A stretch of DNA of 64,000 nucleotides, from NCBI GenBank assembly GCA_963772955.1, contig CAVYZF010000003.1:364799-428798 (forward strand), in the 5' to 3' direction. The position numbers were made by a program, and so were the translations under genes. Position 1 is the stretch's first letter. The number at the start of each line of letters is the position of its first letter. Of this stretch, positions 2,228 through 29,489 are shown piece by piece. The notes below the pieces were generated by a model, which saw only the letters and a list, made by a program, of their open reading frames with translations, was not told where the DNA came from and did no database searches. Source of the DNA: an uncultured Acidobacteriota bacterium. GTDB taxonomy: Bacteria; Acidobacteriota; Vicinamibacteria; Vicinamibacterales; UBA2999.

Positions 2228-2230
2228 GAC

Positions 2231-8016: not shown

Positions 8017-8037
8017 GCGTCGAGAATACCGCAGCCT

Positions 8038-8067
8038 GACCGGGACCCGGGACCCGGGCCCCGGACC
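8038..8067. repeat. Tandem 7-nt repeat (ACCCGGG-type)
   Basis: Reads gaccggg acccggg acccggg ccccgga cc in the short spacer upstream of the M20 peptidase start. Confidence 0.65.
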
Positions 8068-8564
8068 TACGGCCTGAAGAACGTCAGCAACCGCCCGGCG
8101 GACATGACGCCGATCCATGCAAGCAGCGATACCCCGCCTGCCAGCCGTGCCGCCAGCGGGGGCGGGGCTCCGGGCGGCGCCTCCAACAATCGCCTGAACG
8201 TCCCTGCATAGAAAATCATCACATTGATGCCGGCAATCGTGATGAACGTGACTTTCCAGTAGAACGCCTTGTTGAACAGGTATTGATCGGGCGTGGCCGA
8301 GATGAAGCAGATCCCGGTCAGCATGTTGATGACGAATCCCGAGATGCCGATCGGAATCAATCGATGAAGCGCTGCGATAGGGATCCGCTTCGCGAAGCCA
8401 AGCAACCTGAGATCGAAGACACCGACCGTGCCGAGCAGCAGGGACATCCCTGTGAAGTGCAGCGACTCGAAGATCGGCCATCCCCATTTCGCCGTACGCA
8501 GGAACTCGCCCTGCGGGGTGTGGCGCAGATACGCCTCCAGCGCGTGAAGGACCTGGTCTAGCAC
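8067..8564 (-). CDS. 4-TM membrane protein, paralog B of the 8558..9061 product
   Basis: Hydrophobic helices, with a shared pattern to the upstream gene (LH..G....G.....D.R.LGF...IP..AL.R...GF..N). I propose a GTG start at 8564, overlapping the upstream stop by 7 nt. The track start at 8636 is the alternative. Confidence 0.55.
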   Translation of the reverse strand: MLDQVLHALEAYLRHTPQGEFLRTAKWGWPIFESLHFTGMSLLLGTVGVFDLRLLGFAKRIPIAALHRLIPIGISGFVINMLTGICFISATPDQYLFNKAFYWKVTFITIAGINVMIFYAGTFRRLLEAPPGAPPPLAARLAGGVSLLAWIGVMSAGRLLTFFRP

Positions 8565-12149: not shown

Positions 12150-13694
12150 TTAGTGAACGTGCCCTTCGGCCGGCAGGCCTTTGGCGGCCGATGCCAGTTG
12201 GACTTCATACGCGCCGCGCGTGACGACGCGATCGCCGGACGTGACGCCGCTGCGGATGCCGACGAGATCGCCGTCGCGGGAAGCCACTTCAACGTAGCGG
12301 CGCGAAAACGTCTCGCCACCGATCTGCACGAAGACATACGGTCGCCCTGCTTCCATCAGGACCGCGTCGCGAGGAACGACCGACATGTGCTGAGTCCGGC
12401 CGGTGTAGATGACCGCCGTGCCTGTCTGACCGATGAGCAGCCGGCCGCCGCGATTCTCGACTTCGATCTGAACCGGCAGCGCGCGCGTCTTCGGGTCGAT
12501 CACGCCGGCGTCGTGCACGTGGTCCGGCTTCAGCTCGATCGGTTCCGGACGGCCAGGCACCTCAAACGCCAACGCAGCAATCCGCTCGGACAGCGGCGCT
12601 TCGCTCGGCGGAATCTGCGCCTGTAACTCGACCCGATCGGTACGCACGATGCGGAAGAGTGGTGCGCCCTCGTCGAACGACGCGCCGAGCGCGGCGTAGA
12701 CCTCGGCAACTCGACCGGCGATCGGAGCGCGCAGCACGAACGCGTTCCCGGAGGCGACGCTGCCACCGCTGCGCAACACCTCGTCACGTTGCGCAAGTCG
12801 CGCCTGCGCCGCTGTCATCCTCGTCTCGGCGATGGAAGTCGCTCGGCGGGCATCCTCGACGCGGCGCGCCGGCACGGCCCGTTCCTGGAACAGACGCTCG
12901 GCGCGTGCCTGATCGGCCGTGGCTGCATCGAGCGCTACCTGCGCCTCCGCCACGTTGGCAGCAAGCGAGGCGCGATCCTCGCCTCCTTCGGCCAGCCGCG
13001 GCTCGAGTTGCCCGAGCACGTCGCCGGCAGAGACGCGATCGCCAACGGACGGAAATGTCTTCGACGCGTAGAGTCCGTCGGCGGGTGCGGCCACAATCGC
13101 TTCGCCGCCGGTCAGCGGCTCGATTGCCGCCGGGACTCGCAAAGCGGACCGAACATTTCCTTCGCGAACCAGAGCGGTCTGGAAAGGATTGGTCCACTGC
13201 TGCTCTTTCAGGTACGCGATCGCTGCCGCATCCTTGTCAGGCTGCTTCTCGGCATCGGCGTTGCCAGCCGTGTCGTCACCGAACACGGTCGTGACTCCGA
13301 GATCGTGACGATCAGACAAACCCGGTGCGTTGACGAGCAGCGCCCACCGGTAACGTCCAGCCGGGGGAATCTTTCCTTCGACCCGGAACGCACCCGGCCT
13401 CAGCGGCTCGGATCCCGGTAGGGTCGTTGGCGATCCACCGGACTCTGGCGTCATCTCAATGGATGGCCGGCCGGCGTTCAACGCGCTGAAGTCGGCGAGC
13501 TTCGTGAGATGCACAGCGAAGCGCACAGTCTTACCCGCCACGAGCGGCGGATGCTCCATGAACAGTTCGCTCGTGTCGGTCCAGCTCGTGACGTCGAGCG
13601 TGGGGGTTTCGTCAGCACTGGCTGGTGCCTCGCGTGCGCGAGTGCACCCGGCCGCGACGGTTCCGATCACAATCACGCTGAGCAGGTATCGCAT
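12150..13694 (-). CDS. Efflux RND periplasmic adaptor (CusB/CzcB-like) with N-terminal Ig-like extension
   Basis: Start at MRYLLSVIVIGTVAAGC (lipoprotein-like), overlapping the tolC-like stop by 1 nt (TGATG). It has the coiled-coil, lipoyl and beta-barrel pattern of an MFP. An extra ~150 aa at the N-terminus resembles the Ig-like domains of the 4446..5486 product. Confidence 0.88.
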   Translation of the reverse strand: MRYLLSVIVIGTVAAGCTRAREAPASADETPTLDVTSWTDTSELFMEHPPLVAGKTVRFAVHLTKLADFSALNAGRPSIEMTPESGGSPTTLPGSEPLRPGAFRVEGKIPPAGRYRWALLVNAPGLSDRHDLGVTTVFGDDTAGNADAEKQPDKDAAAIAYLKEQQWTNPFQTALVREGNVRSALRVPAAIEPLTGGEAIVAAPADGLYASKTFPSVGDRVSAGDVLGQLEPRLAEGGEDRASLAANVAEAQVALDAATADQARAERLFQERAVPARRVEDARRATSIAETRMTAAQARLAQRDEVLRSGGSVASGNAFVLRAPIAGRVAEVYAALGASFDEGAPLFRIVRTDRVELQAQIPPSEAPLSERIAALAFEVPGRPEPIELKPDHVHDAGVIDPKTRALPVQIEVENRGGRLLIGQTGTAVIYTGRTQHMSVVPRDAVLMEAGRPYVFVQIGGETFSRRYVEVASRDGDLVGIRSGVTSGDRVVTRGAYEVQLASAAKGLPAEGHVH

Positions 13695-14917
13695 CACTGG
13701 ATCTCCCAACCGCTGACAAACTCCAATTCGATTTCGGCGCGCCGAACTGCGGCGTCGAGCACCGCCTGGCGAATACGTGCCACGGCGCCGCTGCGATAGG
13801 CATCGAGCAGTTCGAGGATGCCGCGCTCGCCCGCGTCGTAGCTCACGTGCGCGATGCGCTCGAGCTCGGCTGCGCTCGTGGTGGACGTCGCGCGATACCG
13901 CTGTGCGGCCTCGCGCCGTTCTTCGACCAGCATGCGCAAGGCGACGATTTGTGCGGATACGGAAGTGCGAAAGACAGCCGCACGCGCCTCGGCCTGCGCG
14001 AGATGCGCCTGCGCGATCGCACGCTCCGGCCGGGCATGGTCGAACAGCGGGATCGTCGCGTGAACGCTGAGGACACTGCCGACGTCGCCGCCCCCGACGT
14101 TCGACGACTTCCTGCCGGCGACAATCTCCGGCTCCGGGACCAGGCGCCGTGCCGCTGCGCGATCGGCAAAACGCGCAGACTCGATTTCCTGTTGCAAGGC
14201 TGCTCCCTCGCCGCGTGTCATCTCGGCGCGCGCCGTCAACGTGTCAATCGTGGGCAGCGGTGCTCGACTGGTTGTCGCCGGGACGACTGCGACAATGGCG
14301 GTGACGTCGCCGGGAGCCACGAAGAACGCGGCAAGCGCGGCCTGCGCACGGGCACGATCGCCGCGAGCCGCCACCCAGTCTGCGTCGATGTCCATGACCT
14401 CGCGCTCGGCGCGGAGGCGGTCATAACCTGCAGCGTCGCCGGCTGTTTCGCGTCGCGCCAACACCTCAGCCAGCGTTCGCAGCTGGTCGCGAGCCCGCGC
14501 CAACTCCGTCTCACGCACCTGCGCCGAGACGAGGTCCGCGTAAGCCGTGCGAAGTTCGGCGTGTGCTCGACGGATCTCCTCGTCGGCTCTGCGCTCGCTC
14601 GCCTCGATGAGTGCTGACGCGGCATCCACTTCGAGTCCGCGGCGGCCGGTAATCGGCAATGGCTGCGTGACGGTCACCATGTTCTCGGTGATGCCCGCGA
14701 CGGACTCGCGATTGAAGGTCGCGCGCGGATTGGGCCAACGGCCTGCACTGAGGACGTCAGCCCGGGCAACATCGACTGACGACCGAATGGCACGAACGCG
14801 AGGACTGTCAGGTGAAAGCCGCGCCAGCGCGTCACTTTCAGAGAGAACGATTTGGGCGGTGGCGGGCGCGCCGAACGACAGCAGCACCGCAGCCACGCAC
14901 CACGTACGTGTCCGCAT
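13694..14917 (-). CDS. TolC-family outer-membrane efflux protein (CusC/CzcC-like)
   Basis: Signal peptide MRTRTWCVAAVLLSFGAPATAQ. Two Ala/Arg/Glu-rich coiled-coil repeats typical of OMF proteins. First structural gene of the CBA order. Confidence 0.85.
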   Translation of the reverse strand: MRTRTWCVAAVLLSFGAPATAQIVLSESDALARLSPDSPRVRAIRSSVDVARADVLSAGRWPNPRATFNRESVAGITENMVTVTQPLPITGRRGLEVDAASALIEASERRADEEIRRAHAELRTAYADLVSAQVRETELARARDQLRTLAEVLARRETAGDAAGYDRLRAEREVMDIDADWVAARGDRARAQAALAAFFVAPGDVTAIVAVVPATTSRAPLPTIDTLTARAEMTRGEGAALQQEIESARFADRAAARRLVPEPEIVAGRKSSNVGGGDVGSVLSVHATIPLFDHARPERAIAQAHLAQAEARAAVFRTSVSAQIVALRMLVEERREAAQRYRATSTTSAAELERIAHVSYDAGERGILELLDAYRSGAVARIRQAVLDAAVRRAEIELEFVSGWEIQ

Positions 14918-15828: not shown

Positions 15829-18328
15829 TCTGGGGCCGCATCATCGACGTGCTCCGTCGCCGGCGGCTCGACGCCGACCTGGACGCTCAGCTCGCGCCTA
15901 CCATCTCGACGGGCTCGAGGCGGTCGCGCGCACGGCATGGGGCCCGACGAGGCCCATGCGGCGGCTCGCCGCGCGATGGGTGGACTGACACAAGTCCAGG
16001 ACGCGTATCGCGAGCAACTCACGATTCCTGTCATTGAGGAGCTCTGGCAGGACGTTCGCTACGGCTGCCGTGTCATGCGCCGCAATCCCACGTTCACCGT
16101 GGGTCAACACCATTTCGACGGTGACTGGCGTGGGCGACCCAGAACAGGTCCGCGTGATCGGCATCAGCGACGGCCTCCTGCCAGCGCTCAATGTTCCACC
16201 CGCAGCCGGCCGCTGGCTCCTCGCCGCCGACCAGGTCGGCGCCACGCGGCCTCCGCCAAGCGTCTTCCAGGTGTGGACCCGCGTGATGCTCACCTACGGG
16301 TACTGGCAACGGCGCTTCGGAGGGGACCCATCCGTGATCGGACGCGCGATCATCATGGACTCACGCCCGAGGGAGATCGTCGGCGTGATGCCGCCGGGGT
16401 TCAGGATCGTCAATGACGAAGCGGACATCATCTTTCCGCTGGCATTCGATCGAGGACGATTCACGCTCGCCGGTTTCAACTATCGAGGCGTGGCCCGGCT
16501 CAAGCCGGGAGTCACGATCGAGCAAGCCAACGCCGACGTAGCGCGCATGATTCCGATCTGGATGAACTCCTGGTCGGATGGACCGGGCACAGATGCACGA
16601 GCCTACGAGACCTGGAGAATGACGCCCGACCTCCGTCCCCTGAAACAGGAAGTGGTCGGCAGCGTGACCGACGTGCTGTGGGTGGTGATGGCCACGATCG
16701 GCCTGGTGATGCTCATCGCCTGCGCAAACGTGGCGAATCTGCTGCTCGTTCGGGCGGAGGTGCGGCAAAAGGAGTTGGGTCTGCGCGCGGCGCTTGGCGC
16801 GGGCCGCGGACGGATCATCCGGAGTCTGCTGGTCGAAAGCCTGCTGCTGGGTGTTATCGGCGGCGCGCTCGGAGTGGGACTCGCGTACGCCGGCTTGCGA
16901 TTGTTGCTGGTCATTGGCCCGTCGAATCTTCCACGACTGAGCGAAATCTCACTCGATTCGCGAACGTTGGCTTTCAGTGCCGTGCTCTCGCTCGTGTCGA
17001 GTGTGTTGTTTGGACTCCTCCCGGCGCTGAAATACACGAGGCCGCGGATGTCGGCTGCGCTGGGCAGCGTCGGCCGAACAGCGAGCGTGAGCCGAGAGCG
17101 CCACCGCGTCCGCAGCGCGCTGGTTGTGGTGCAGGTGGCGATCGCGCTCGTACTCCTGGTGAGCGCTGGATTGATGATTCGCACATTCGAGTCCTTGCGG
17201 ACCGTCGCGCCGGGGTTCACAGAGCCCGAGCGTCTCCACATCATGCGATTCTTTTTCGCTGCGTCGGCCGGTACGGACCCGAGAGGAGTGACGCGGGTAC
17301 AGAACGACCTTCAGGACAAGCTGTCGTCGATTCCGGGTGTGACCTCGGCAGCGTTCGGGAACGCGATGCCGATGGAAGGGTTCGGTCCGAACCTGGGCGT
17401 CATAAACTTCGGCGCCATCCGCACAGAGGATCGGACCGATGAAGAGTCTGAAAGCCCACCGGTGCGCGTATTCAAGTACGCCTCGCCCGGCTTCTTTCGC
17501 ACTGCGGGCACCCGAGTGATCGCCGGCCGCGAGATCACGTGGACAGAGGTCTACGATCTGCGACCCGTCGCCCTGGTTTCCGAGAATCTCGCCCGTGAAC
17601 TCTGGGGCACACCACCAGCTGCCGTTGGCAAACACCTCCGCCAGCGTCCCGACATGCCCTGGCATGAAGTGATCGGTGTCGTGGAGGATGTCCGTGAAAA
17701 CGGTCTCAACCAGCACGCCCCTGCCATCGTCTACTGGCCAACGATGTCTGCGTATTTGAATGTCGCTGGAGGACAGCCGAATGCCATCCGCGGGGTGTCC
17801 TTCATCGTCCGCAGCGATCGCACCAGCACTGAAGGGTTTCTCAGCCAAGTCCGGCAAGCGGTGTGGTCAGTGGACCCCACGCTGCCCGTGTCGCTGCGGA
17901 CCATGCGCGACGTCTACGATCAGTCGCTCGCCCGGACGTCCTTTACGCTGGTCATGCTGGCAATCGCCGCGGCGATGGCTCTGCTCCTGGGCATCGTCGG
18001 CATCTACGGCGTGATCTCGTACGTCGTCTCGCAGCGCAGGCGCGAGATTGGCATTCGCGCGGCGCTCGGCGCACAGCGGGGAGAATTGAAACGAATGTTT
18101 GTGCGCCATGGACTGGCGCTGGCTGGTGTGGGTGTCATGGTGGGACTGGCGGCCGCAGCAGGCCTCACGCGCCTGATGTCGACGTTGCTGTACGGCATCA
18201 CGCCACTCGATCCGATGACGTATGCGGTAGTGCCTGTCATCTTAGTGATCGTCACGGTACTCGCGAGTTATCTGCCGGCTCGACGGGCTGTGTCCGTCGA
18301 TCCCGTAGAAGTTCTCGGGTCAGAGTAG
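15825..18328 (+). pseudogene. ADOP-family (MacB-like, duplicated FtsX) permease, disrupted
   Basis: The N-terminus is spread over three frames: MIWGRIIDVLRRRRLDADLDAQL, then AYHLDGLEAVARTAW, then GPDEAHAAARRAMGGLTQVQDAYREQLTIPVIEELWQDVRYGCRVMRRNPTFTV. The segment expected after PGFT (TM1 plus the start of the periplasmic domain, ~70-80 aa) is absent before ...VTGVGDPEQVRV. The remaining 764 aa (16034..18328) is intact MacB/FtsX-like. Confidence 0.75.
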
Positions 18329-18659: not shown

Positions 18660-20996
18660 TTACTCGGCGCGCAACGCGACCGCCGGATCGACACGCGTAG
18701 CGCTGCGAACCGCCGGGAGTACCGCAGCGAGGAGCGCGAGACCGAACGTCGCGAGACCGAGCAGATACCCGACGGAATCAAGCGACGTATCGAGTCCAAG
18801 CCCCGCGCTGACGCCGATCATCGCCTGTGCAACGAGCGTCGCCAGCACTGCGCCCGCGCCCACTCCAGCGGCCAACGGCGTCAGGTACTGCCACAGCAGC
18901 AAAGACGCAATGCTGCGCGCGTGCGCGCCCAGCGCTCGACGCACAGCGAGCTCGCGCGTGCGCTCACGAACGGCAAACGTCAGCAGTCCGAAGATTCCGA
19001 ATGCTGCGAGGCTGGCTGCGACCGCGCCGAGAGCTCCGATCATCCGGCTGGCGGCGAGCGAGTGCTGCAAGAGCTGGTCGATGGGGCGCTGCAACAGCCA
19101 GGCGGATGGCTGCGCATTGGACATGGATGCCGCGGAACGTGCACGTCGGAGAACACTGCGGGCGTCGCCTCGAGTGCGAACGATGATCGATGCCTCTCCC
19201 ACACTGTTCTCGTCGAGCGCCACGTACGATTCAACGGCACGGACATCCCGGAGTCTTCCGAGCACCGTGTCCTCGACGACCCCCACCACCGTGGCCGCCT
19301 CGCCGCCGGGCGTCCAGATCTGGCCCAGCGCATCTGCGTCATCGAACACAGCCCGCTCGGCGGAACGGCTGATCACGGCAACGCGGCGTTCACCGGGCAT
19401 GGGAATCCGGCCGCGCAGCACGTGAATGCCCATCACCGCGAAGTACCCGGGATCCACACGCGACTGCAGGATCACCGGCGCACCATCCGCGCTCAGGACG
19501 GCCGGCCCATAAATGGGATCTGCCGCGACTGCCACGCCGGCGACATCGGGAACTGCGCGAACACGCGCGGCCATGCCGTCGACTGCGGCGAGCGTTGCGG
19601 CGCCGGGAAAAGCGCCTTCGTCGAGCTGTGGCTCGACCACCATGATCGACGTGTGATCGGCGTGGCCGGCCAGCGTCAGCTGACGCTGCGAACCACGCAC
19701 CAGAAGTCCGGCGAGAACGAGGAGCAAGCAGCTCGTCGCCACCTGTACGGCGACCAGCGTCTGCCGGGCCCTCGTTGCGGGCGGACGCTGCCGGCTGACA
19801 TGACGGGCTGGCGCGAGGCCGAATGCAATCGCGCAGACCAGGGCGAGAACACCAGCTGCCGCGACGATCGAAAAGTCAGTCGTCACGCGCACGTTGAGCT
19901 GCCCCGCAAAGTTGGCCACCAACAGTCGGCCGCCAACGCTCGCGAGCGCTATTCCCACCACAGCCGCCAGCGCTGACAGCAGCAGCGCTTCTGTCATCAG
20001 CTGCCGTACCAACCGGTTGCGGCTCGCGCCGACTGCGACGCGGGTGTCGATCTCGCGCCGCCGTGCGACACCGCGCGCAAGCATCATGTTCCCGAGGTTG
20101 GCGCACGACGTGAGCAGAACGAGAAACACCAGCACCGTGGCGATCGGCAACCCATTGCCGCGACGCTCATCCTCGCGAACGGGACGCACGCGAACCACTT
20201 CGCGTTGTTCAAACAGGCGGGGCTGCTGCAGGCGCAGTTCAGCATCAATGGCACTTAGCTGAGCGGAGATGGCGTCTCGGCTCACACCCGGACGCGGTTG
20301 CGCAACGAGAGCCGTATCCGGCAGGTCCGCGTCCCCGTCGCGACCGATTGCGCCCAGCAGGCCGGGACGATTTGCATCCGGAAACCAGAGATCGCCGCGG
20401 CCCATGGTCACAGCAACGAAGTCGGACGGCAGCACGCCGAGGACCATCACGCTGTTGCCGTTGATGGTCACTGTCCGCGAGACGACAGACGGATCGCTAC
20501 CGAAGCGCCGCTTCCAGTAGCCGTCGCTCAGCACCGCAACGAGGGGCGCTCCGCGTTGGTCGTCAACCGGCTCCAACAGGCGGCCGAGCGCGGGAGTGAC
20601 GCCGAGATCGCGGAAATAGTTACCGGACACGAACTTCGCGCGCGCGTCCTCGTCGTCCTGCTGCACCTGCACCGGCTCGGTAGTCAGGCGCTCGGCGACG
20701 ACATAAGAAAACACGCTCGTGTTCTCACGATACAAACGCAGCGCGCTCATCGTCATGGCCCAGCGCTCCGCCTGCGGAGATTGGCGGACGATGCGCACGA
20801 GTGAGTCGGCATCGCGGAACGGCAGGCTCCCCGAGAGCGTCGCTTTCACGACATGAAGAAACGCGAGGTTGAGCCCGATGCCGACAGCCAGGACGAGCAC
20901 CGCGGACGCGGTAAAGCCAGGACTCCGTCTCAGTGCACGGCTCCCTAAGCGGATGTCGTGCGACAGATCCTCCATCCAGTGAGCGACGCGTGACAT
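18660..20996 (-). CDS. ADOP-family (MacB-like, duplicated FtsX) permease
   Basis: Start MSRVAHWMEDLSHDIRLGSRALRRSPGFTASAVLVLAVGIGLNLAF (ATG 20996; alternative 20975). Two MacB periplasmic domains and two FtsX 4-TM modules. No adjacent ATPase gene. Confidence 0.88.
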   Translation of the reverse strand: MSRVAHWMEDLSHDIRLGSRALRRSPGFTASAVLVLAVGIGLNLAFLHVVKATLSGSLPFRDADSLVRIVRQSPQAERWAMTMSALRLYRENTSVFSYVVAERLTTEPVQVQQDDEDARAKFVSGNYFRDLGVTPALGRLLEPVDDQRGAPLVAVLSDGYWKRRFGSDPSVVSRTVTINGNSVMVLGVLPSDFVAVTMGRGDLWFPDANRPGLLGAIGRDGDADLPDTALVAQPRPGVSRDAISAQLSAIDAELRLQQPRLFEQREVVRVRPVREDERRGNGLPIATVLVFLVLLTSCANLGNMMLARGVARRREIDTRVAVGASRNRLVRQLMTEALLLSALAAVVGIALASVGGRLLVANFAGQLNVRVTTDFSIVAAAGVLALVCAIAFGLAPARHVSRQRPPATRARQTLVAVQVATSCLLLVLAGLLVRGSQRQLTLAGHADHTSIMVVEPQLDEGAFPGAATLAAVDGMAARVRAVPDVAGVAVAADPIYGPAVLSADGAPVILQSRVDPGYFAVMGIHVLRGRIPMPGERRVAVISRSAERAVFDDADALGQIWTPGGEAATVVGVVEDTVLGRLRDVRAVESYVALDENSVGEASIIVRTRGDARSVLRRARSAASMSNAQPSAWLLQRPIDQLLQHSLAASRMIGALGAVAASLAAFGIFGLLTFAVRERTRELAVRRALGAHARSIASLLLWQYLTPLAAGVGAGAVLATLVAQAMIGVSAGLGLDTSLDSVGYLLGLATFGLALLAAVLPAVRSATRVDPAVALRAE

Positions 20997-21039
20997 GAGC
21001 GACCGATTATAACGACTGATGACCGTTCGCGGTGGTGGG

Positions 21040-21504
21040 TCAACGCAGACTCGATCCAATCACCCCAACGCCCTGCTCGTACACGAGCCGGCCTCCGCGC
21101 TCGGCCGTTTGTTGAAGTCCAGCGACTCCAACGAGCGCGGCGACCAGTAGTGCGACTCGATAGCGACGGGCGAGAGGTGCGCGGAATGCCACGCTCACTC
21201 GTATCAGCGTCAGCACGGAAAAATAGCTGGCGGTGGCAATGGCCCACGTTCGATGGGCCTGGACGATGGGATGCGCCATACCGGGCATGAAGACGGTATC
21301 AAGCGCCTGTTGCCCGGTGAGACACGCGGCGATCGCGGCCGCACTCCCGAGGACGAACAACGTCGTTGCTGCGGATGTCAGCCATCCGGGGCGACCGAAC
21401 AGCGTATCGACCAGGTCCGCGAACGCCGCAACGACGATGAGCGCGATCGGGAAATGAATAACGAGCGGATGGAGGTTCGGGGCCCAGGTTGGGAGCAGCG
21501 GCAT
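21040..21504 (-). CDS. DUF2231-type integral membrane protein
   Basis: MPLLPTWAPNLHPLVIHFPIALIVVAAF... (the HFPIAL motif) with 4 predicted TM segments. Confidence 0.7.
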   Translation of the reverse strand: MPLLPTWAPNLHPLVIHFPIALIVVAAFADLVDTLFGRPGWLTSAATTLFVLGSAAAIAACLTGQQALDTVFMPGMAHPIVQAHRTWAIATASYFSVLTLIRVSVAFRAPLARRYRVALLVAALVGVAGLQQTAERGGRLVYEQGVGVIGSSLR

Positions 21505-21513
21505 CGTGTGCTC

Positions 21514-22174
21514 TCAGGGTGCGAGTGGCGCGAGCGGAATGATCATGAGCAGCGAGAACGACCACGGATTCGCGTCGTCCAGGAACCGTTCGGCGCCGAC
21601 CACGTCACCGGCTTTCGGCAATCCGCTCGCAAGGTAATCCAGCGACACCTCGGCCTCCACATTTCGTAACCAGTGCCCCTTCGGCAATCTGTTGAACAGA
21701 TGAAATGCGGTATCCCACTCGAAGTCGAGTTTGTGCGTGTAGCTGCTCGTCGCCCGTGGTGTCTCGCCCGGGCTGAACTGATCGACAACGTCGATGTGCG
21801 ATGAGACCCACCCTCCCGTCCGATCGGTGTCGAACACATGGAAGTTGAACTCAGTTTCAATCTCGACACTGTTGTCGCTGACGAAGGGGGCAAAGATCGT
21901 CTCGAATGTGAACCCCACGCGCGGAATCGTCGTGGGGATATCGAGGGCGAGTACCGAGCTCAAACACAGACCCGGCACCAATCGACTCCACCTGCCCATC
22001 GACTTCAACACGGCGCGCCCCTCCGAGATTCTCGATCGTCCACGTCGGCTCGATCTTGAGCTCCGGCGCGCACAGGATCACGCACCGCGGTTCGCTCTGT
22101 GCGTCCGCCGGCGCAGGAGCCGCCAGCCATCCTGCGGCCAGGAGGCACGCAGCAGCTAACCGCCCACGCGCCAT
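21514..22174 (-). pseudogene. Secreted hypothetical protein, apparent frameshift near 21950-21960
   Basis: The N-terminal part MARGRLAAACLLAAGWLAAPAPADAQSEPRCVILCAPELKIEPTWTIENLGGARRVEVDGQVESIGAGSVFEL is in the frame of the track ORF 21857..22366. It continues in the 21514..22011 frame (SVLALDIPTTIPRVGFTFETIFAPFVSDNSVEIETEFNFHVFD...). An internal restart (MGRWSRLVPGLCLSS...) cannot be excluded. Confidence 0.5.
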
Positions 22175-23379
22175 GCGGACACTCCCGGCCATTTCTTCAA
22201 CGCATCCCTCGCCCACTGCGGTGTGCGGTCTTTGTGACACGACATGCAGGGGTTCGGCACACCGCTCTGTTCGGTCGTTGTGGGCGAGATGAACTTGAAC
22301 GTGTGACTGCGCACGTTGACCGTGCCCACAGTGCGCGCGATCTGCGGCATGTGACAGGCGATGCACTTGCTCCCTTCACTGTCGGCCTTGTGCTGCGTGT
22401 GCTGCTCGATCGTACCGGGCGGCCCTGGCTGACGCTGTGGCCCGTGACACTCCAGACAGACGGCGTTTCCCGGTAAACGGAGATCTGCCTCGTACTTTGT
22501 CCCATGGACGTCATGACACCCGTAGCAGCGCACGCCTTTCACGGACATCTGACTCTGCACGTAGTCGTTTCCCTGCATCCGGTTCTTGTGCGCATGACCG
22601 TCAGGCCAATGCGTGAACGTTTCCTTGCCAGGGTGATGCTCCTCGAGCATCCAGACGTCGCTCAATCGATCGCCCGGTTGATAACCCACCGGCCAGTCGT
22701 AGTAGACGCCCTCGATCGGTTTCGTTCGCGGCTGTCCCTGCGTATGACACTGCAGGCAGACATCGTCGGCCCGCTCTCCCTGCAGCTTTGCCGGATTGAC
22801 GATCGTGGCTGCGACGGGATTCTGAACGTGCAGACTTCCGGGGCCGTGGCACTTTTCGCAGCCCACGTTCCATTCGGTGACCGTCTTCGTCTTGATGTCG
22901 TAGTTGACGGAGTGACACCCATCGCAGAGCGGACCCGTCGGCCGCTGCATCTGATCTGCGGGATAGTGCTCCGCCCACCAATCCGTTCCCGGCTCGACGA
23001 AGTAGCGCCGCCAGGTCTTCGCCTGGACGTCCCATTGCGCGGGGAACACGAAGTAGTCGTCGCCGCGCTTCGTGAAGTAGCGCTGCTTCCACTTCGTCCC
23101 GTAGACGAACGCCACATCCTCTTTCTTGAAAGTGACGAGAGGGTTCGGCGCAGAGAAATCACCGAGCACCGCATCGGGGTGCTTGACGGGATCGAGGATG
23201 ACACGCGCCATCAGCGTGTCTTTCCACCTGGTGTACTCGTCCCGATGGCAGGATTCGCACGCGGCCGACCCCACGAACGTCTTAGCCGTCGTGGTGGTGG
23301 CAGGCGGCGGTGGCGAAGATGACGTGCACGCGGTGGTAAGCGCGACGAGCACGGAGACAACGGAAACCCTTCGCAACAT
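22156..23379 (-). CDS. Octaheme c-type cytochrome (lipoprotein-like signal)
   Basis: Eight CXXCH motifs: CESCH, CDGCH, CEKCH, CLQCH, CYGCH, CLECH, CIACH, CMSCH. Start MLRRVSVVSVLVALTTAC at 23379 (alternative 23394). There is no CXXCK motif, so it is not NrfA-type. Confidence 0.9.
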   Translation of the reverse strand: MLRRVSVVSVLVALTTACTSSSPPPPATTTTAKTFVGSAACESCHRDEYTRWKDTLMARVILDPVKHPDAVLGDFSAPNPLVTFKKEDVAFVYGTKWKQRYFTKRGDDYFVFPAQWDVQAKTWRRYFVEPGTDWWAEHYPADQMQRPTGPLCDGCHSVNYDIKTKTVTEWNVGCEKCHGPGSLHVQNPVAATIVNPAKLQGERADDVCLQCHTQGQPRTKPIEGVYYDWPVGYQPGDRLSDVWMLEEHHPGKETFTHWPDGHAHKNRMQGNDYVQSQMSVKGVRCYGCHDVHGTKYEADLRLPGNAVCLECHGPQRQPGPPGTIEQHTQHKADSEGSKCIACHMPQIARTVGTVNVRSHTFKFISPTTTEQSGVPNPCMSCHKDRTPQWARDALKKWPGVSAWRVGG

Positions 23380-23392
23380 GTAACAGGACGAC

Positions 23393-23400
23393 ATTATAAT
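23393..23400. promoter_or_regulatory. Palindromic ATTATAAT shared by divergent cytochrome and chrB genes
   Basis: ATTATAAT reads TATAAT on both strands. It lies 13 nt from the cytochrome ATG (23379), and 7 nt from the chrB TTG (23408) or 22 nt from the chrB ATG (23423). Confidence 0.4.
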
Positions 23401-23422
23401 TGAAACGTTGGTTACAGAGCGA

Positions 23423-24487
23423 ATGCCGGTACGGCGCGCCACCAGCCGAGTCGCTCCAGGCAGGGCTGGCGTCGCGAAGCGGTGGCTGCTGTTCGTCCAT
23501 CAGCTGCCGTCGAAGCCATCGAATATCCGCGTCCGCGTCTGGCGGCGTTTACAGCAGATTGGTGCGCTCGTGATCAAGCAGGCCGTCTACGTGCTGCCTG
23601 ATTCCGCTGAGGCGCGAGAAGACTTCGAGTGGTTGAAAGCCGAGATCGAAGGCGTGGGTGGGCAGGCGAGCATTCTGTCAGCCGACCACATCGACGGCGC
23701 CGCAGACGAGGCGCTGGTCGAGGAATTCAGACGCGCCCGGCAAGACGACTATGTTGCGCTGGCGCGCGAGATCGAGGACGGCCTCAACGCCACGCGCGCC
23801 GCGGTGTCGCGAGGCAAACGAGTCATCCGGGGCGAGCAGCGGCCGGTTCAGACGTTTCGCCAGCGCCTTGCCGCCATCGAGCGTGTGGATTTCTTCGACA
23901 GCGCGGGTCGCGATCGTGTCGTCGCGTTGATCGATCAGATGTCGTCGCGCCGGACACAAGAAAGCAGGCACAGCACCGAGAGGAGCACCAGCTCGAAGGG
24001 CACATACCACGCTCGTTCCTGGGTGACACGCCCGCGGCCCGGCGTTGATCGCATGTCGTCGGCATGGCTAATCCGGCGCTTCATCGATTCAAAAGCTGCG
24101 TTTGGCTTCGTGCGAGAACGAGAAAAAGCTCCACACGACGCCCTTCCCTTCGACATGTTTGCAGTCGAGTTCGGGCATCGCGGACGGAACTGCACGTTCG
24201 AGACGCTGTGTGAAGTGTTCTCCATCGCCGACCCGGCTGTCGCCCGCATCGCATCAATCGTTCACGATCTCGACTTGAAGGACGGACGCTTCCGTGCTCC
24301 CGAGTCGGCGACGGTCGGTGCCGTCATCGACGGACTGCGCCTGGCGCACGCTGACGATCACGAACTGCTCGATCGGGGGATGACGCTGTTCGAATCGCTG
24401 TACCGGTCGTTCGAACAAGCCACCAAACGACCGCAGCCGCGCCGGGTGGCGCGGCCGCAATCTAGCCGTAAAGACCGCTCGCGTTGA
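23423..24487 (+). CDS. chrB: ChrB-family chromate-resistance regulator-like protein
   Basis: The N-terminal domain (WLLFVHQLPSKPSNIRVRVWRRLQQIGALVIKQAVYVLPDSAEAREDFEWL) and the C-terminal domain (WVTRPRPGVDRMSSAWLIRRFIDSKAAFGFV...FETLCEVFSIADPAVARIASIVHDLD) match the ChrB_N and Chrome_Resist patterns. The start is ATG 23423 or TTG 23408. Confidence 0.82.
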   Translation: MPVRRATSRVAPGRAGVAKRWLLFVHQLPSKPSNIRVRVWRRLQQIGALVIKQAVYVLPDSAEAREDFEWLKAEIEGVGGQASILSADHIDGAADEALVEEFRRARQDDYVALAREIEDGLNATRAAVSRGKRVIRGEQRPVQTFRQRLAAIERVDFFDSAGRDRVVALIDQMSSRRTQESRHSTERSTSSKGTYHARSWVTRPRPGVDRMSSAWLIRRFIDSKAAFGFVREREKAPHDALPFDMFAVEFGHRGRNCTFETLCEVFSIADPAVARIASIVHDLDLKDGRFRAPESATVGAVIDGLRLAHADDHELLDRGMTLFESLYRSFEQATKRPQPRRVARPQSSRKDRSR

Positions 24488-24501: not shown

Positions 24502-27084
24502 TTACTTGCCGAGCGCCATCCGCAGTGTGACGCCGACTGTGCGCGGATCGCCCGGCAGGCCGACGATGAGACCCGAGTTGCCCGGCTGCGCCGTCAGGAA
24601 CTCGAAGTACTGCTTGTCGAGCAGATTGCGCGACCAGAGGAACACCGACCAGCCCTGGTTCCACCGGAAGCCCGCACGCAGGTTGACGAGGCCGTACCCG
24701 TCAACCGTCATGTACCGCGAAGCCGACGGGCTCGAGGAGAATTCCGATCGATAGCTGGTGTCAACCGCGCCGAAAAATTCACCAGCCTGACTGAAGACCG
24801 TCGCCGGGTGGTTGTATTCGCCACCGAACGTGAGCGCCCACTTCGAGATACCCGGCAGGACCGAGCCCGAGATGTCCTTGGTCTGGGGACCGCCAGTGTC
24901 CTCGACCGGCGGCGGCGCATCCGGGAACGAGACGTAGATGCCGTCGGTGTAGGCAGCGGCGCCATAGAACGAGAGCCGGCGGTTGATGCGCGCGTTGCCG
25001 TCGAATTCGGCGCCTCGCACCCGCACTTTCTCGGCGTTTGCGAGATAGCCGCGCAGCACGCCGACCTGTGCGTTGACGACCTGCGTCTGATAGTCATCGA
25101 TGCTCGTATTGAACACCGTGACGTTCGCGGTATACCCGGGGCGGAACTCGGTCTTCACTCCGAACTCGACGTGATGTGCGTCCTCCGGCTTGACGGTCGC
25201 CGCCGACAGAACGGGATTGCCGAGCGCGTCGGTGGGCAAGCCATTCAGATTCAAACCGACAGACTTGAACCCGGTCGAGTAGGTGCCATACGTGTTGACG
25301 GCGTTCGAAATCTTGTACGCCACCGTCAGCTGACCTGATGTGTTCGTGTCATCGACGTCCGCGGTGTACGCCTGCGGCGCAAGGACCGAGAGCTTGAGTG
25401 CGATGAGCGCCGGGTTGGTCGTCTCCAGTCCGCCATACACCTGCTGGTCGTAGTCAGCGCTCTTCTGGTCGTAGTTGAAGCGCAGGCCCGGGAGGATGCG
25501 CAGGCGATCGGTGACGAGCCACTCGAGTTGACCGAAGGCTGCTGCGCTGGTGTTCCGGAATGTCAGGTACTGGTTGTAGCCGTAGCCGTCGAGCAGGCCC
25601 GGTGTTGCCGCCGCCGCGCTCGGCGCGAGCAGGAAGCGCGCGGCCGCCGATCCCTGCTCCTGCTTGAACGACGGATTGGAATCGAGCGCCTGGTGGAACG
25701 CGAAGATGCCGGTCACCAGGTTGAAGCGCGACGACAGCGGGCCGGCGTAGCGCACCTCCTGCGTCCACTGGTTCTGTTTCGATGGCGCTGCAGAGATCGA
25801 TGTGACCGGCAGGCCGATGAAGTCGCGGTCGTTGGACGGATCCCAATTCCAGTACCGATACGCCGTCGTCGAGGTCACGCGACCTCGTCCAACATTCCAA
25901 TCGACGTTTGCCGAGGCACCGCCGAGATCCTGGTTGGACTGCCAGCTCGTGTCCGTGTCGGTGAGTCGATCGAAGGCGTTGTAGCTCGGGGGCGTGTACC
26001 CGAGGTCGGCTGTGATCGCCTCCCACTGACGGTTCGCAGGTCGCAGCGTCGGCGCCACACCTGCGACAACCTGCGCATAGCCCTCGGGCCGCTGACGCGT
26101 GTGATCCACCGACACGTTGACGGCAACTGATTTCGACGGCGTCACGAGCAGCTGACCTCGGAACCCCAGATTGTTCAGCGTGTTCGTCTCTGCCTGCGTC
26201 TTCGTGTTGTAGATGAAGCCCTCGCGCCCCGTGCCGGAGAACGAAACACGTCCAGCGACCTTGCTGCTCAACGGACCGGCCAGCGACGCCTTGGCCTGGA
26301 CGAAGTCGTAGCTGCCATACGCGAGCTCGACGTTCGACTCCCGCGAGAACGTCGGCCGGCGACTGGTGACGTTGATCGCCCCCGCCGTCGTGTTCTTGCC
26401 GAAGAGCGTCCCCTGCGGTCCGCGCAGCACTTCGACTTGCGCCACGTCGAGGAAGTCGAGCGTTGCAGACGCGGGGCGCGCGTAGAACACGCCATCGATG
26501 TACATCCCGACCCCCGGCTCGATGCCGTCATTGGTCAGACCGAACGGTGACCCGATGCCGCGAATGGTGACCGCGGAGTTGCGCGGGTTGGACGAGTAGA
26601 ACTGGACGGTGGGAATGAGCTCCTTGACGCGATTCACGTTGAACGCACCGGCGCTGGCGACGAGCTCGCCAGTCAGTACCGACACCGGAATCGGAACTTC
26701 CTGAACCGCCTCTTCGACGCGACGAGCCGTCACAACCACGCCTTCCGTCAGTCGAGCCGGCGTCAGCGTCACGTCAATCTTCGCCGCCTGGCGTCCGTCG
26801 AGTGCGCCGCGAACAACTGCGGCTTCGAACCCATCGAGGTTCGCTTCCACACGATACTGACCGGGTGCCAGGTCACTGACCTGATAGCTGCCCTCGGCGT
26901 CGCTCACGGCTTCCTTCGCGGCGCCGCTCGCCTCGTTAATCACTCGAATCGTCACGCCCGGAATAGCGCCACCACTCGAGTCGCGAACAACGCCGTTGAC
27001 GGTACCGGCGGTCTGGGCCAGCGCTGCCGTCGGCATCAACCCGGCGAGCAGGACGGCGGCGAACATCAACACTCTGCGTAACAT
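24502..27084 (-). CDS. TonB-dependent receptor with CarboxypepD_reg-like N-terminal domain
   Basis: Signal MLRRVLMFAAVLLAGLMPTAALAQ. TAGTVNGVVRDSSGGAIPGVTIRVINEASG...YQVSDLAPGQYRV is the carboxypeptidase-regulatory fold. This is followed by a plug (VVVTARRVEEAVQEVPIPVSVL) and a long beta-barrel. Confidence 0.9.
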   Translation of the reverse strand: MLRRVLMFAAVLLAGLMPTAALAQTAGTVNGVVRDSSGGAIPGVTIRVINEASGAAKEAVSDAEGSYQVSDLAPGQYRVEANLDGFEAAVVRGALDGRQAAKIDVTLTPARLTEGVVVTARRVEEAVQEVPIPVSVLTGELVASAGAFNVNRVKELIPTVQFYSSNPRNSAVTIRGIGSPFGLTNDGIEPGVGMYIDGVFYARPASATLDFLDVAQVEVLRGPQGTLFGKNTTAGAINVTSRRPTFSRESNVELAYGSYDFVQAKASLAGPLSSKVAGRVSFSGTGREGFIYNTKTQAETNTLNNLGFRGQLLVTPSKSVAVNVSVDHTRQRPEGYAQVVAGVAPTLRPANRQWEAITADLGYTPPSYNAFDRLTDTDTSWQSNQDLGGASANVDWNVGRGRVTSTTAYRYWNWDPSNDRDFIGLPVTSISAAPSKQNQWTQEVRYAGPLSSRFNLVTGIFAFHQALDSNPSFKQEQGSAAARFLLAPSAAAATPGLLDGYGYNQYLTFRNTSAAAFGQLEWLVTDRLRILPGLRFNYDQKSADYDQQVYGGLETTNPALIALKLSVLAPQAYTADVDDTNTSGQLTVAYKISNAVNTYGTYSTGFKSVGLNLNGLPTDALGNPVLSAATVKPEDAHHVEFGVKTEFRPGYTANVTVFNTSIDDYQTQVVNAQVGVLRGYLANAEKVRVRGAEFDGNARINRRLSFYGAAAYTDGIYVSFPDAPPPVEDTGGPQTKDISGSVLPGISKWALTFGGEYNHPATVFSQAGEFFGAVDTSYRSEFSSSPSASRYMTVDGYGLVNLRAGFRWNQGWSVFLWSRNLLDKQYFEFLTAQPGNSGLIVGLPGDPRTVGVTLRMALGK

Positions 27085-27140: not shown

Positions 27141-27374
27141 AACCATCTGGTTGAAGGTGAACTGAGTCAGCCGAACGACCGGGGTCTGGAAGGTGGGAGC
27201 GGAACGAACCGAAAGAACTAGCTCACCACCTGGTGGTCGTCGGCGTCATACATGCGCACCGACACAACGTGGGGCAACAGAGACATCGATGGGCGAGAAG
27301 AGACATTCGCCGGACTAGAGGCAAGACCTGGACCGTAAACGATTTGGGAGGGAATTTGACTTCCCAGACCCAGA

Positions 27375-27404
27375 TTGACGACTATCTATCAAATAAGATA
27401 GATT
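27375..27404 (+). promoter_or_regulatory. Sigma-70-like promoter with embedded operator-like palindrome
   Basis: TTGACG (27375-27380), 18 nt, TAGATT (27399-27404). The inverted repeat ATCTATC-aaataa-GATAGAT (27384-27403) spans the spacer and the -10 in an AT-rich island upstream of the sigma-54 activator gene. Confidence 0.4.
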
Positions 27405-27436
27405 TTCTGTTTCAATATACAGCCAATTTCCGTCAT

Positions 27437-28507
27437 ATGTCACAGAAACAAAGAGCCGCTCCGGCCCGTCTGGCGCCAGACATCCTCATCAACGGCGATC
27501 TGCGCGCCGGCGAAGAGCAGCTGATCGGCGGCGACACGGGATTGGCCGCGGTGATGACACGCGCGCGCATCGTCTCGCGAAGTACCGCCCCGGTGCTGCT
27601 CTTCGGCGAAACGGGAACCGGCAAGGAGATCATCGCGCGGGCGATCCACGAGCACTCGCCGTTTCGGAGCGGCCCTTTCCGTCGTGTGAACTGCGGCGCG
27701 ATTCCCTCTGAACTGATCGACTCTGAGCTCTTCGGTCACGAGCAGGGCGCCTTCACTGGTGCCGTGAGTCGGCGCAAGGGATGGTTCGAACAGGCCGACG
27801 GCGGCACGCTGTTCCTCGACGAGGTCGGCGAGCTTGCCCTGGCTGCGCAGGTGCGCCTGCTGCGCGTCGTGCAGGAGTCCGAGCTCGTTCGCGTGGGCGG
27901 AGAGCGACCAGTGAAAGTGAACGTTCGAATCGTGGCTGCCACGCATCGTGATCTGCCGGGCATGGTGGAGCAACAGACGTTTCGCGAGGATCTTTACTAT
28001 CGCCTGTCGGTGTTTCCGATCGTGATCCCGCCGCTGCGCGATCGCCCGAGCGACGTCCGTGCGTTCGCCGAATACTTCGCAGAGCGCGCAGCCAACCGTT
28101 TCGGTCTTCGACTCGTGCCGGTCTCTGACGACGATGTGCGGGTGCTGGCCGAGTACCACTGGCCGGGCAACGTGCGCGAGATGGCCGCCGTGATGGATCG
28201 CGCGGTGTTGATCGGCCAGGGGAAGACGCTCAATGTCGCGGGCGCGCTCGGTCAGGGCGCGAGGGCGTCGGTCCCCTCTCCGGTGCGAGGCAACGACGCA
28301 GTACCGTCGCGTATTGCCCCGCTGGACGTCGTCATTCGACAGCACATCGAGACCGCGCTCGAGGCGACCAACGGTCGAGTGGAGGGGCGGCACGGCGCCG
28401 CGCGCCTGCTCAAGATCAATCCACACACGCTGCGGGCGCGCATGCGGAAACTGAAGATCGACTGGCGCCAGTATCGCGAGCGTGACGCCATGGACGAGCC
28501 CGAATGA
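27437..28507 (+). CDS. Sigma-54-dependent transcriptional activator (AAA+ plus Fis-type HTH) without a sensory domain
   Basis: Start [12 protein letters not shown] (ATG 27437). Walker [19 protein letters not shown] loop ([10 protein letters not shown]), Walker [12 protein letters not shown], and a C-terminal HTH ([19 protein letters not shown]). Only ~40 aa precede the AAA+ core. Confidence 0.88.
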
Positions 28508-28583
28508 ACGCGCAGCTCGAACCGGGCGGCCGTTTGACAGACTCGCGACAAACACGCAAAACTGGCAGGCTTTCCCTCAGGTA

Positions 28584-29489
28584 ATGGACTCCACTCAGAT
28601 CGCACTCGTCTTCATCACACTCGGCGCGGCCATCGTCAACGGTGCCCTCGGCTACGGGTTCTCGTCGATCACCGTGCCGATCGCGTTGCTCTTCCTGACC
28701 AACCGCGTTCTCAATCCCGCGCTGGTTCCGATCGAAGTCGTTCTCAATGCCTACGTGCTGTGGGTGAATCGCGACGCACTGCCTCGCGTGTGGCGTCGCG
28801 TGCTGCCGATCGTGATCGGGTTACTTCCAGGCGTCATCCTTGGCACCACGATCGTGTCGATGGTCAACCCGGGCTGGCTCCGGTTCGGCACGTTCATCGT
28901 GCTCCTGCCGCTGATTCTGTTTCAGGCCGCAGGATATCGCCGGCCCATCAAGTCCGAGAAATCGGTGGGATTCGTGTTCGGCGGCGGCGTCGGCGTGCTC
29001 TACTCGGTGACGACGATCTCGGGACCGCCGTTGGCGGTGATGCTGAGCAATCAGGGGCTGACGCAGAAGGACTTTCGCGCAGCGCTCGGTTTCATCCGGT
29101 TGGCCGAATCGAGCTTCACGGCAGTCGCGTACGCATACGCCGGGCTCTACACGGCGCAAAGTCTTGCGCTCATTCCATCCATCCTGCCGAGCATCGCGAT
29201 CGGGGTCCCGATCGGCGCGTACATCATTCATCGCATCAGGCCGGAGACATTCCGTCGCCTGTGTATGAGCTTCGATGCGTGGATCGTGGGCTTTGGCTTG
29301 TCCACGCTGCTCAAGGACCTCGGTCTGGTGCAGAGCAACATCGCCTACCTGGTGCTCGTTACCGTCGGCCTGCTCGATTCGTGGCTGCTCTACCGGTTCT
29401 TCTCCGTGCAGTTGCCGCAGGTCAAACGCAATGAAGAACTCGCGCGATCTCGAATTCCCCCGGCCGAACCTGTGCGACCGCAGGGCTAA
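28584..29489 (+). CDS. TauE/SafE-family sulfite/anion exporter
   Basis: Start MDSTQIALVFITLGAAIVNGALGYGFSSITVPIALLFL (ATG 28584). A polytopic membrane protein with the DUF81 duplicated 4-TM pattern. Confidence 0.82.
   Translation: MDSTQIALVFITLGAAIVNGALGYGFSSITVPIALLFLTNRVLNPALVPIEVVLNAYVLWVNRDALPRVWRRVLPIVIGLLPGVILGTTIVSMVNPGWLRFGTFIVLLPLILFQAAGYRRPIKSEKSVGFVFGGGVGVLYSVTTISGPPLAVMLSNQGLTQKDFRAALGFIRLAESSFTAVAYAYAGLYTAQSLALIPSILPSIAIGVPIGAYIIHRIRPETFRRLCMSFDAWIVGFGLSTLLKDLGLVQSNIAYLVLVTVGLLDSWLLYRFFSVQLPQVKRNEELARSRIPPAEPVRPQG

Follow-up and report, generated by a model that had tools for sequence, protein, structure and literature searches.

What does a regulator of the ChrB family control when no ChrA chromate pump is encoded beside it? 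To our knowledge, ChrB has been described almost exclusively as the protein that regulates the ChrA pump and as a part of chromate biosensors. The question is raised by a 64,000-nucleotide stretch of DNA from an uncultured acidobacterium of the order Vicinamibacterales (contig CAVYZF010000003.1; hereafter the window, whose own numbering we use throughout). In this stretch, a chrB gene (23423-24487, plus strand; 354 residues, with the Pfam domains ChrB_N and ChrB_C) stands back to back with cyt8 (22156-23379, minus strand), the gene for an octahaem c-type cytochrome of the OcwA/MccA clade, a probable lipoprotein of 407 residues with eight CXXCH motifs. The cytochrome gene is followed on the minus strand by genes for a secreted all-beta protein of about 219 residues, predicted to be a small outer-membrane barrel (21514-22174, broken by a 1-nt insertion), for an inner-membrane protein of 154 residues with the Pfam domain DUF2231 (PF09990; 21040-21504), and for an ADOP-type duplicated MacB/FtsX permease (18660-20996, with a probable ATG at 20996 and an open frame extending to 21059).

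A first-pass annotation of the window, made from the letters alone, had described a chrB gene lying about 43 bp from a divergent operon for an octahaem lipoprotein, a frameshifted secreted beta protein, a DUF2231 protein and an ADOP permease. Domains, motifs and the frameshift alignment bear out this gene content, and the spacer between the start codons supported by homologue alignment measures 43 nt (23380-23422), the cytochrome ATG lying at 23379 and the chrB ATG at 23423, the latter aligned with ATG or TTG starts of relatives. Its statement that chrA is absent beside chrB also holds: the genetic linkage to chrA expected of the family is lacking in the window, where tblastn of the 64 kb with three ChrA proteins detected no chrA-like sequence (best E 0.3). 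There is no second cytochrome gene within the operon. An ATG at 23394 was considered as an upstream start for the cytochrome and ruled out, as it falls within the conserved -10 core described below.

We propose that ChrB acts here as an autoregulated, oxyanion-responsive repressor of a bidirectional promoter that drives an envelope electron-transfer module, and we put the probability of this reading at roughly 0.55. Sequence comparison lends good support to the broader part of the proposal, that of ChrB control over a haem module outside the cytoplasm; it shows which genes are linked, what the operator motif is and where it occurs, to which families the proteins belong and where in the cell they reside, and the argument is built on these results. 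Each part comes from a known family, but neither their wiring nor the three-gene module appears to have been described, and we found no literature that links ChrB with multihaem cytochromes or describes the module, one apparent match for ChrB and a cytochrome being a text-matching artefact ('c__HRBIN16').

Recurrence of the chrB-cytochrome pairing

We compared 107 chrB loci, 25 of them from species-representative genomes, 80 from metagenomes and 2 obtained via contigs encoding homologues. Loci were annotated by tblastn with the window proteins and with Pfam-confirmed ChrA, MFS, aminotransferase, M28 and DUF5916 references; labels of the form L001-L117 denote related loci gathered for comparison. 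Of the 107 loci, 19 have a cyt8 gene no more than 300 nt from chrB and 23 have one no more than 5 kb away, and the corresponding figures for chrA are 16 and 19, counts that are biased by the retrieval of the loci with peptides of the window's ChrB and by the near-duplicate nature of some contigs. No locus has both a cytochrome and chrA near chrB, and none of the 23 cytochrome-linked loci has chrA at all. The remaining neighbours of chrB are MFS or ADOP permeases, an aminotransferase or DUF5916. The first-pass annotation had treated a chrB standing alone as a departure from its normal company, a feature that is not special in this lineage, since only 16 of the 107 loci have an adjoining chrA. 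It had also held that its proposal, a ChrB-controlled module for reductive detoxification or extracytoplasmic electron transfer, would fail if the adjacency were conserved in no related genome; the pairing recurs in 19 loci and in at least three gene orders. The proposal is supported in part by the comparison.

Divergent pairing is found in eight of the nine loci whose ChrB is at least 70% identical to that of the window (L030, L032-L037 and L112), whereas in the ninth (L031) the upstream flank ends after 170 nt. The divergent order is also found in a sister clade at 55-57% identity (L048, L050-L052, L054 and L055), where chrB is followed by an ADOP gene. In a further clade, at 41-47% identity (L073, L075, L085, L093 and L095), chrB is followed by the cytochrome gene on the same strand, the two overlapping by 4 nt in L075. 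Other arrangements are found in L005, where the order is chrB, DUF5916, cyt8, barrel and DUF2231, in L009, where cyt8 adjoins an ADOP gene divergent from chrB, and in L113, which has yet another gene order with a cytochrome near chrB. In L018, chrB is divergent from a Porin_O_P gene and from an eight-haem cytochrome of a different family (719 residues). In a neighbour-joining tree of ChrB, crude and used for grouping only, the cytochrome-linked proteins fall into several separate groups among others linked to ChrA, MFS, ADOP, class-V aminotransferase and DUF5916 genes.

The simplest objection to ChrB control is that the palindrome in the spacer serves only chrB autoregulation or control of a permease, the cytochrome operon being a neighbour by inherited synteny. 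The divergent order could indeed be a common inheritance of the window's clade and its sister clade, ADOP genes are frequent enough (three in the window) for some adjacency to be expected by chance, and most of the sampled cytochrome modules have no chrB nearby; however, linked pairs turn up in several gene orders and in ChrB clades that are distinct from one another, and we consider the absence of any regulatory link improbable. The spacer itself, discussed next, provides two further arguments to the same effect.

As a side observation, the Vicinamibacterales ChrB clades (L005-L109) each have a neighbour of their own, be it ChrA, MFS, ADOP, a class-V aminotransferase with an M28 peptidase, DUF5916 or the cytochrome, and each clade has its own variant of the half-site described below (GTTACA, TGAAAC, GTTATA or GTTGCA).

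The spacer as a putative shared promoter and predicted operator

Within the spacer lies the palindromic ATTATAAT (23393-23400), which reads TATAAT on each strand. The first-pass annotation had seen in it a -10 box for both directions at the centre of the spacer; the position needs correcting, as the element sits a few bases to the left of centre. Because TATAAT is perfect in both directions and conserved, we read the element as a putative shared -10. The copy at 23395-23400 is directly abutted by the palindrome TGAAACGTTGGTTACA (23401-23416), an instance of TGNAAC-N4-GTTNCA that ends 7 nt before the chrB ATG and that we predict to be the ChrB operator; an inverted repeat at the -10, just upstream of chrB, is what the ChrB family would lead one to expect. 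Together these elements form a 24-nt core, ATTATAATTGAAACGTTGGTTACA (23393-23416), that is identical in the window and in eight related contigs (nine sequences). The flanks diverge at once on both sides of it, and the chrB coding DNA of the same contigs is 81-91% identical.

The motif is a mark of chrB promoters throughout the family. Across 808 kb of chrB-seeded loci there are 57 sites matching TGNAAC-N4-GTTNCA, an enrichment of about 200-fold over shuffled sequences (mean 0.29, maximum 2). Most (42 of 57) lie between -120 and +40 of a chrB start, 11 lie just past a chrB stop, ahead of the next gene (ADOP, DUF5916 or MFS), and the remaining 4 are directly upstream of a convergent MFS gene. 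Every copy is thus located at the promoter of chrB or of a neighbouring gene, and chrB is the sole gene that all of these positions share. The window contains exactly one match, the site at 23401-23416, even when one mismatch is allowed.

In the sister clade, TATAGT/TATACT occupies the position equivalent to the TATAAT of the window, and the start codons are only about 35 nt apart (L050). With start codons separated by 43 nt, or about 35 nt in the sister clade, both transcripts would therefore have very short leaders and the two promoters would reach into each other's genes. This bears on the possibility of inherited synteny raised above, since any factor bound to the palindrome would have to overlap the cytochrome promoter. 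The second argument comes from cytochrome genes at a distance from chrB. L113 carries one 14-mer, GAAACGAACGTTAC, twice, with about 5.7 kb between the copies: ahead of chrB, and again ahead of a cytochrome-DUF2231 pair that lies some 4 kb downstream of chrB. In L116, where there is no chrB within 6 kb, TGTAACATGTGTTACT occupies the spacer between divergent MFS and cyt8 genes. These two sites tie the cytochrome to the motif independently of chrB adjacency.

An extra half-site, TGTAAC (23379-23384), overlaps the cytochrome start codon (CATGTAAC) and is present throughout the window's clade, at a distance from the core that varies by 1 nt. We considered whether it forms, with the distal GTTACA, a single long palindrome (23379-23416), and ruled this out as a strict operator on account of that variation in the left-hand spacing among relatives.

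The same design appears, with variations, elsewhere in the family. In the co-directional clade GTTACA-N17-TGAAAC flanks a canonical TTGACT/TATCAT promoter, in the ADOP clade the variant is GTTATA-GA-TATAAC, and in several clades an ADOP gene flanking chrB has its own palindrome, TGTAACACGTGTTACA. The chrA-linked loci carry the variant ACAGCTGTTGCA of the half-site design, and the classical chrB promoters of pMOL28 (TGTAGAGATCTCTACA) and Herbaspirillum (TGTAATTTTCGTTACA) are built on the same palindrome design, with a TGTA..-N4-..TACA architecture that the window's palindrome shares with both. As in the known ChrB-ChrA determinants (TnOtChr of Ochrobactrum tritici and chrBAC of Cupriavidus metallidurans pMOL28), the inverted repeat of the window lies at the -10 immediately upstream of chrB. 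In O. tritici, the chrB promoter has an imperfect inverted repeat (-37 to -4) that extends over its -10, and ChrB binds this promoter region in vitro. When chrB is absent the promoter is constitutive, and when chrB is present it is induced by chromate, which makes ChrB a chromate-released repressor (PMC3817168). In contrast to these determinants, the promoter described here would be bidirectional, and the genes under control would be a multihaem cytochrome module and a permease rather than the ChrA pump.

Two minor observations on related sequences may be added. In L018 (6309-10991) chrB appears to be frameshifted, being recovered as two tblastn segments, and the spacer has TATACT followed by TGCAACCAGTGTTACG. 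At the start of the window's ADOP gene, a perfect TATAAT (21006-21011) lies 12 nt upstream of the ATG at 20994-20996 and is preceded by GTCGTTATA, a sequence similar to the half-site found in operators of the ADOP clade; judging from these elements, the permease may own a short-leader promoter in addition to read-through from the cytochrome operon.

The regulator and the proposed electron-transfer module

The window's ChrB belongs to the family by both of its domains, with ChrB_C (PF09828) matched at E 1.7e-43 (148.6 bits against a cut-off of 25) and ChrB_N (PF20229) at E 2e-12 (47.7 against 23), and it is 28-31% identical to the classical ChrBs, with which it shares the two-domain build. Mutagenesis in O. 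tritici has found that R18 and R23 matter for DNA binding, and R180, R187 and H229 for chromate induction, regulation being lost when these residues are mutated (PMC3817168). The residues equivalent to all five are conserved in the window's ChrB, as mapped through alignment with a Klebsiella plasmid ChrB that has Arg or His at each published position. A sequence search returned no solved ChrB structure. In an AlphaFold2 model (pLDDT 71) the N-domain adopts a beta-alpha-beta-beta-alpha-beta fold of the Cas2-like ferredoxin type with no helix-turn-helix to be seen, and Foldseek matched this N-domain alone (ChrB residues 1-95; 23423-23720) to Cas2 proteins and to PaaX, in line with a weak match to Pfam PaaX_M (E 1.7e-4). 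The likeness is to the Cas2-like middle domain of PaaX-type regulators; PaaX has an N-terminal winged helix for DNA binding, whereas the ChrB model shows no such domain. If the N-domain, in which the residues tied to DNA binding lie, does read the palindrome, its mode of DNA binding would be unusual.

The cytochrome is an apparent lipoprotein. Its 17 cysteines all lie in the eight CXXCH motifs or in the lipobox, and there is no CXXCK. At the end of the signal peptide stands a lipobox-like LTTAC, whose Cys18 is conserved in 95% of 114 homologues, and a tether rich in Pro and Thr comes after it; as these features fit, we take the protein to be a probable lipoprotein. The cytochrome of the co-directional clade has an ordinary signal peptide and no lipobox. 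The family is large, with about 7000 homologues, many at 65-88% identity. The nearest solved structure is OcwA of Thermincola potens (6i5b; E 9.5e-28), with homology across the haem domain in two stretches (residues 33-266 and 281-399). The eight motifs align one-to-one with OcwA haems 1-4 and 6-9; the haem 5 segment is gone, the 54 residues between haems 4 and 6 of OcwA being reduced to 15. OcwA itself is defined by nine haems, two of them (2 and 5) with open coordination and each of these two with a distal His-His motif, whereas the window's cytochrome has eight haems, is about 120 residues shorter and is a probable lipoprotein of a diderm, and in place of a conserved His-His motif it offers a near-invariant HKNRMQGND (264-272). 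Seven histidines outside the motifs are invariant or nearly so (at least 97%). OcwA, MccA and cytochrome c554 form one clade of NrfA-superfamily multihaem cytochromes (PMC9250108), and OcwA without haem 5 superimposes on the haem core of MccA, with haem 2 as the active site (PMC6703420). By analogy, we infer that the window's cytochrome probably retains an MccA-like core with one open-coordinated haem. Nevertheless, it is not an MccA: it shares the haem core and lacks the CX15CH/CX17CH eighth motif and the copper cysteines, and phmmer gives E 0.58 to 4rkm.

The second gene of the operon is split over two frames (21514-22011 and 21857-22366) by one extra base at 21954-21955, where the window has GAGCTCGGTAC and four intact orthologues have GAGCTCGTCC; removing it restores 219 residues. 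The extra base could be a sequencing error or mark a real pseudogene. As a side note, the public annotation calls only a 161-residue fragment of this gene (P0334). The protein family has about 1250 members, with intact orthologues of 218-253 residues, and searches of Pfam and NCBIfam with the fragments and three intact orthologues gave no match, even at E up to 1. The AlphaFold2 model (pLDDT 68, pTM 0.60) has eight long strands, and the top Foldseek matches are NspA, OmpA, OmpW and OmpX, all of them small outer-membrane barrels, which leads us to predict, with moderate confidence, that the protein is one as well.

The third gene follows the cytochrome gene in 10 of 11 distinct contexts, L001 having only a degenerate tblastn match, and its product matches DUF2231 well above the gathering threshold (E 7e-16; 58.9 bits against 26.4). 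Neither the residues His12, His17 and His83 nor the motif T-ERG-RLVYE vary among 11 orthologues; that these histidines serve a cofactor is conjecture. A literature search for DUF2231 returned one irrelevant paper. The ADOP permease has MacB_PCD and FtsX twice each and matches TIGR03434 over its full length (E 1e-156), with a score of 523 bits that is below the cut-off of 622. The window carries three ADOP paralogues (16034-18328, 18660-21059 and 34771-37329), and adjacency to an ADOP gene is therefore weak evidence when taken alone.

From these comparisons we infer the repression, the ligand, the electron route and the substrate as follows. A ChrB dimer bound to the 16-bp palindrome at 23401-23416 would, from its place directly against the shared TATAAT, block RNA polymerase in both directions. 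Chromate or a chemically similar tetrahedral anion would be the oxyanion ligand; its binding to the Arg/His-rich C-domain would lift repression, and derepression would lead to the transcription of chrB on one side and of cyt8, the small barrel and DUF2231, perhaps with ADOP, on the other. DUF2231 would hand electrons, probably from the quinol pool, to the octahaem lipoprotein in the envelope, and the latter, with a retained reactive site like 'haem 2' of MccA/OcwA, would carry out the reduction of the oxyanion before it reaches the cytoplasm. Access through the outer membrane would come from the barrel together with a neighbouring TonB receptor or anion porin, and the ADOP permease would move substrate or product. 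In this layout, an inducible operon that places an extracytoplasmic multihaem enzyme beside a small membrane protein possibly linked to the quinone pool, the module resembles NrfA-NrfH and the OTR- and MccA-type systems; it differs from them in that the membrane partner is a DUF2231 protein, not a tetrahaem protein of the NapC/NrfH kind or an NrfD-type protein.

Several points weigh against this proposal, in addition to the sampling bias mentioned above. No chrB was found within 6-9 kb in any of eight contexts seeded from cytochrome homologues of 65-82% identity; ChrB control would therefore cover only a subset of cytochrome modules, and indeed the cyt8-barrel-DUF2231 module is much more widespread than its ChrB link. 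A consensus sigma-70 scan of 23000-23800 detected no -35/-10 pair, no -35 element and no terminator, and the half-site resembles LacI-family operators, so that another factor is conceivable. The five regulatory residues are invariant in every ChrB paralogue clade and, because of this, do not tell which anion is sensed. The barrel gene is frameshifted in the window genome, the models of ChrB and of the beta protein are of moderate confidence (pLDDT 68-71), and DUF2231 has only three invariant histidines. Finally, the distal His-His motif of OcwA, tried as a marker of the reactive haem, had to be dropped, His248 and His249 being conserved in only 77% and 72% of homologues.

Neighbouring genes and the candidate substrates

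The genes around the module may indicate what it acts upon. In the window, chrB is convergent with a TonB-dependent receptor gene (TBDR; 24502-27084, minus strand, identified by Pfam), followed by genes for a sigma-54 activator and a TauE/SafE-family anion permease (27233-29489, plus strand, identified by Pfam). The receptor is a syntenic neighbour, with orthologues of 88-97% identity flanking chrB in L032, L034-L036 and L112. L112, whose ChrB is 76% identical, has the layout of the window with a Porin_O_P gene inserted between chrB and the TonB receptor, then the sigma-54 activator and TauE in the same order and, beyond TauE, PAPS_reduct and GTP_EFTU genes that are CysD/CysN-like. In L114 (cytochrome 80% identical), one strand carries TBDR, Porin_O_P, Sbp, CysT, CysW, CysA, cyt8, barrel, DUF2231 and an M28 peptidase in that order (859-8433); the receptor is 89% identical to that of the window, and the sulfate-transporter models score above their cut-offs. 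A Porin_O_P gene stands beside the module in L002, L018, L112 and L114, Gemmatimonadota copies of the cytochrome diverge from Porin_O_P, and another cytochrome copy lies near a TonB receptor and a Na_sulph_symp gene of the Na/sulfate-symporter family. The theme that appears to recur in these contexts is the handling of anions at the cell envelope, and they would point to sulfate-like or sulfur oxyanions at least as strongly as to chromate. Detoxification of chromate or selenate is among the candidate functions.

It is hence possible that the module serves sulfur acquisition, reducing an oxidised sulfur compound (tetrathionate to thiosulfate, for instance, or another polythionate or sulfite species) outside the cytoplasm so that the product can enter via Sbp/CysPTWA, with the ChrB paralogue sensing a sulfur oxyanion or sulfate limitation. 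L114 speaks most directly for this, the module being there the distal part of a same-strand string with Sbp-CysTWA whose receptor is so close to the one beside the window's chrB, and so do TauE in the window and in L112, the CysD/CysN-like genes of L112, the Na_sulph_symp gene near another copy, and a sister ChrB clade placed between a class-V aminotransferase, from the cysteine-desulfurase fold family, and an M28 peptidase. Among the octahaem relatives of the cytochrome, moreover, are MccA, a sulfite reductase, and OTR, which reduces tetrathionate (PMC9250108). Yet the direct sulfate-transporter context is confined to one locus, there is no CysPTWA in the window, and the cytochrome is devoid of both the CX15CH motif and the copper-binding cysteines of MccA. 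OcwA, for its part, gave no sulfite reduction (PMC6703420), and the characterised ChrB is reported to be chromate-specific (PMC3817168). On balance we regard sulfur acquisition as an unlikely explanation.

The kinship with OcwA, a cell-surface terminal reductase (PMC6703420), raises a different possibility, namely that the lipoprotein, displayed at the cell surface with the barrel as its partner, passes electrons in the way of OcwA to insoluble Fe(III)/Mn(IV) or to other external acceptors, and that a redox-active metal is what the ChrB paralogue senses. The lipobox with its long Pro/Thr tether, the co-transcription of a predicted outer-membrane barrel, and the large DUF5916 protein that joins the cytochrome in L005 and L075 would all be compatible with extracellular electron transfer. 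Porin-cytochrome conduits (MtrCAB, PioAB/MtoAB) likewise co-encode a lipoprotein multihaem cytochrome and an outer-membrane beta-barrel; however, conduits of the Mtr/Pcc type rely on a porin of at least 20 strands that encloses a periplasmic decahaem cytochrome, and the barrel of the window, with 219 residues and about eight long strands, is predicted to be of OmpA/NspA size, far too small to sheath a cytochrome in the manner of MtrB-type porins. Nor does the operon encode a periplasmic carrier cytochrome or a decahaem partner. The co-directional clade's cytochrome lacks a lipobox, and the genes that recur beside the module encode transporters and porins for anions, not components of metal respiration. 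We therefore hold extracellular electron transfer to be highly doubtful, and return to ChrB as an oxyanion-responsive repressor of an envelope reductase.

On that basis, a wider scenario may be sketched, which we advance tentatively and with low confidence. ChrB sensors in soil Acidobacteria of the Vicinamibacterales may have diversified into oxyanion-responsive repressors, one branch of which would control an envelope reductase of three parts. In it, DUF2231 would be a membrane electron donor of a new kind, joined by an octahaem lipoprotein resembling MccA/OcwA and by a small outer-membrane barrel. Such a reductase could act as a 'gatekeeper' beside sulfate uptake, reducing toxic mimics of sulfate, such as chromate and selenate, or oxidised sulfur species before they pass the inner membrane.

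Should ChrB control of the module be correct, the ChrB family would prove far broader than its link with ChrA suggests, comprising local regulators that have a recognisable operator and including one branch tied to a multihaem cytochrome module. It would also provide a concrete regulon for an octahaem cytochrome family that has thousands of soil-metagenome members and no assigned role, and a first functional handle on DUF2231 and on the unnamed family of outer-membrane barrels, linking both to the handling of sulfate-type oxyanions in the Acidobacteria, an abundant but poorly understood group of soil bacteria. Oxyanion biosensors could, in addition, draw new parts from the predicted operator and its variants.

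Some further observations concern the surroundings of the module. In L113 (12373-14993), a cytochrome-DUF2231 copy is divergent from genes for an ArsR-type regulator and an S-adenosylmethionine (SAM) methyltransferase, with a ChrB-type site in the spacer, and two metal(loid)/oxyanion regulators may thus converge, as far as the sequence allows one to say, on one module. DUF5916 proteins of about 700-785 residues recur by chrB and the cytochrome (L005 9844-11928, L075 3617-5863 and L117 1184-3541), with a CBM9-like N-terminus in L005 and L117 and sometimes behind a palindrome of their own; our literature search for DUF5916 found no papers. The window also encodes an RND efflux operon, with genes for an AcrB-type protein (9066-12140), an HlyD-type protein (12150-13709) and an OEP protein (13694-14917).

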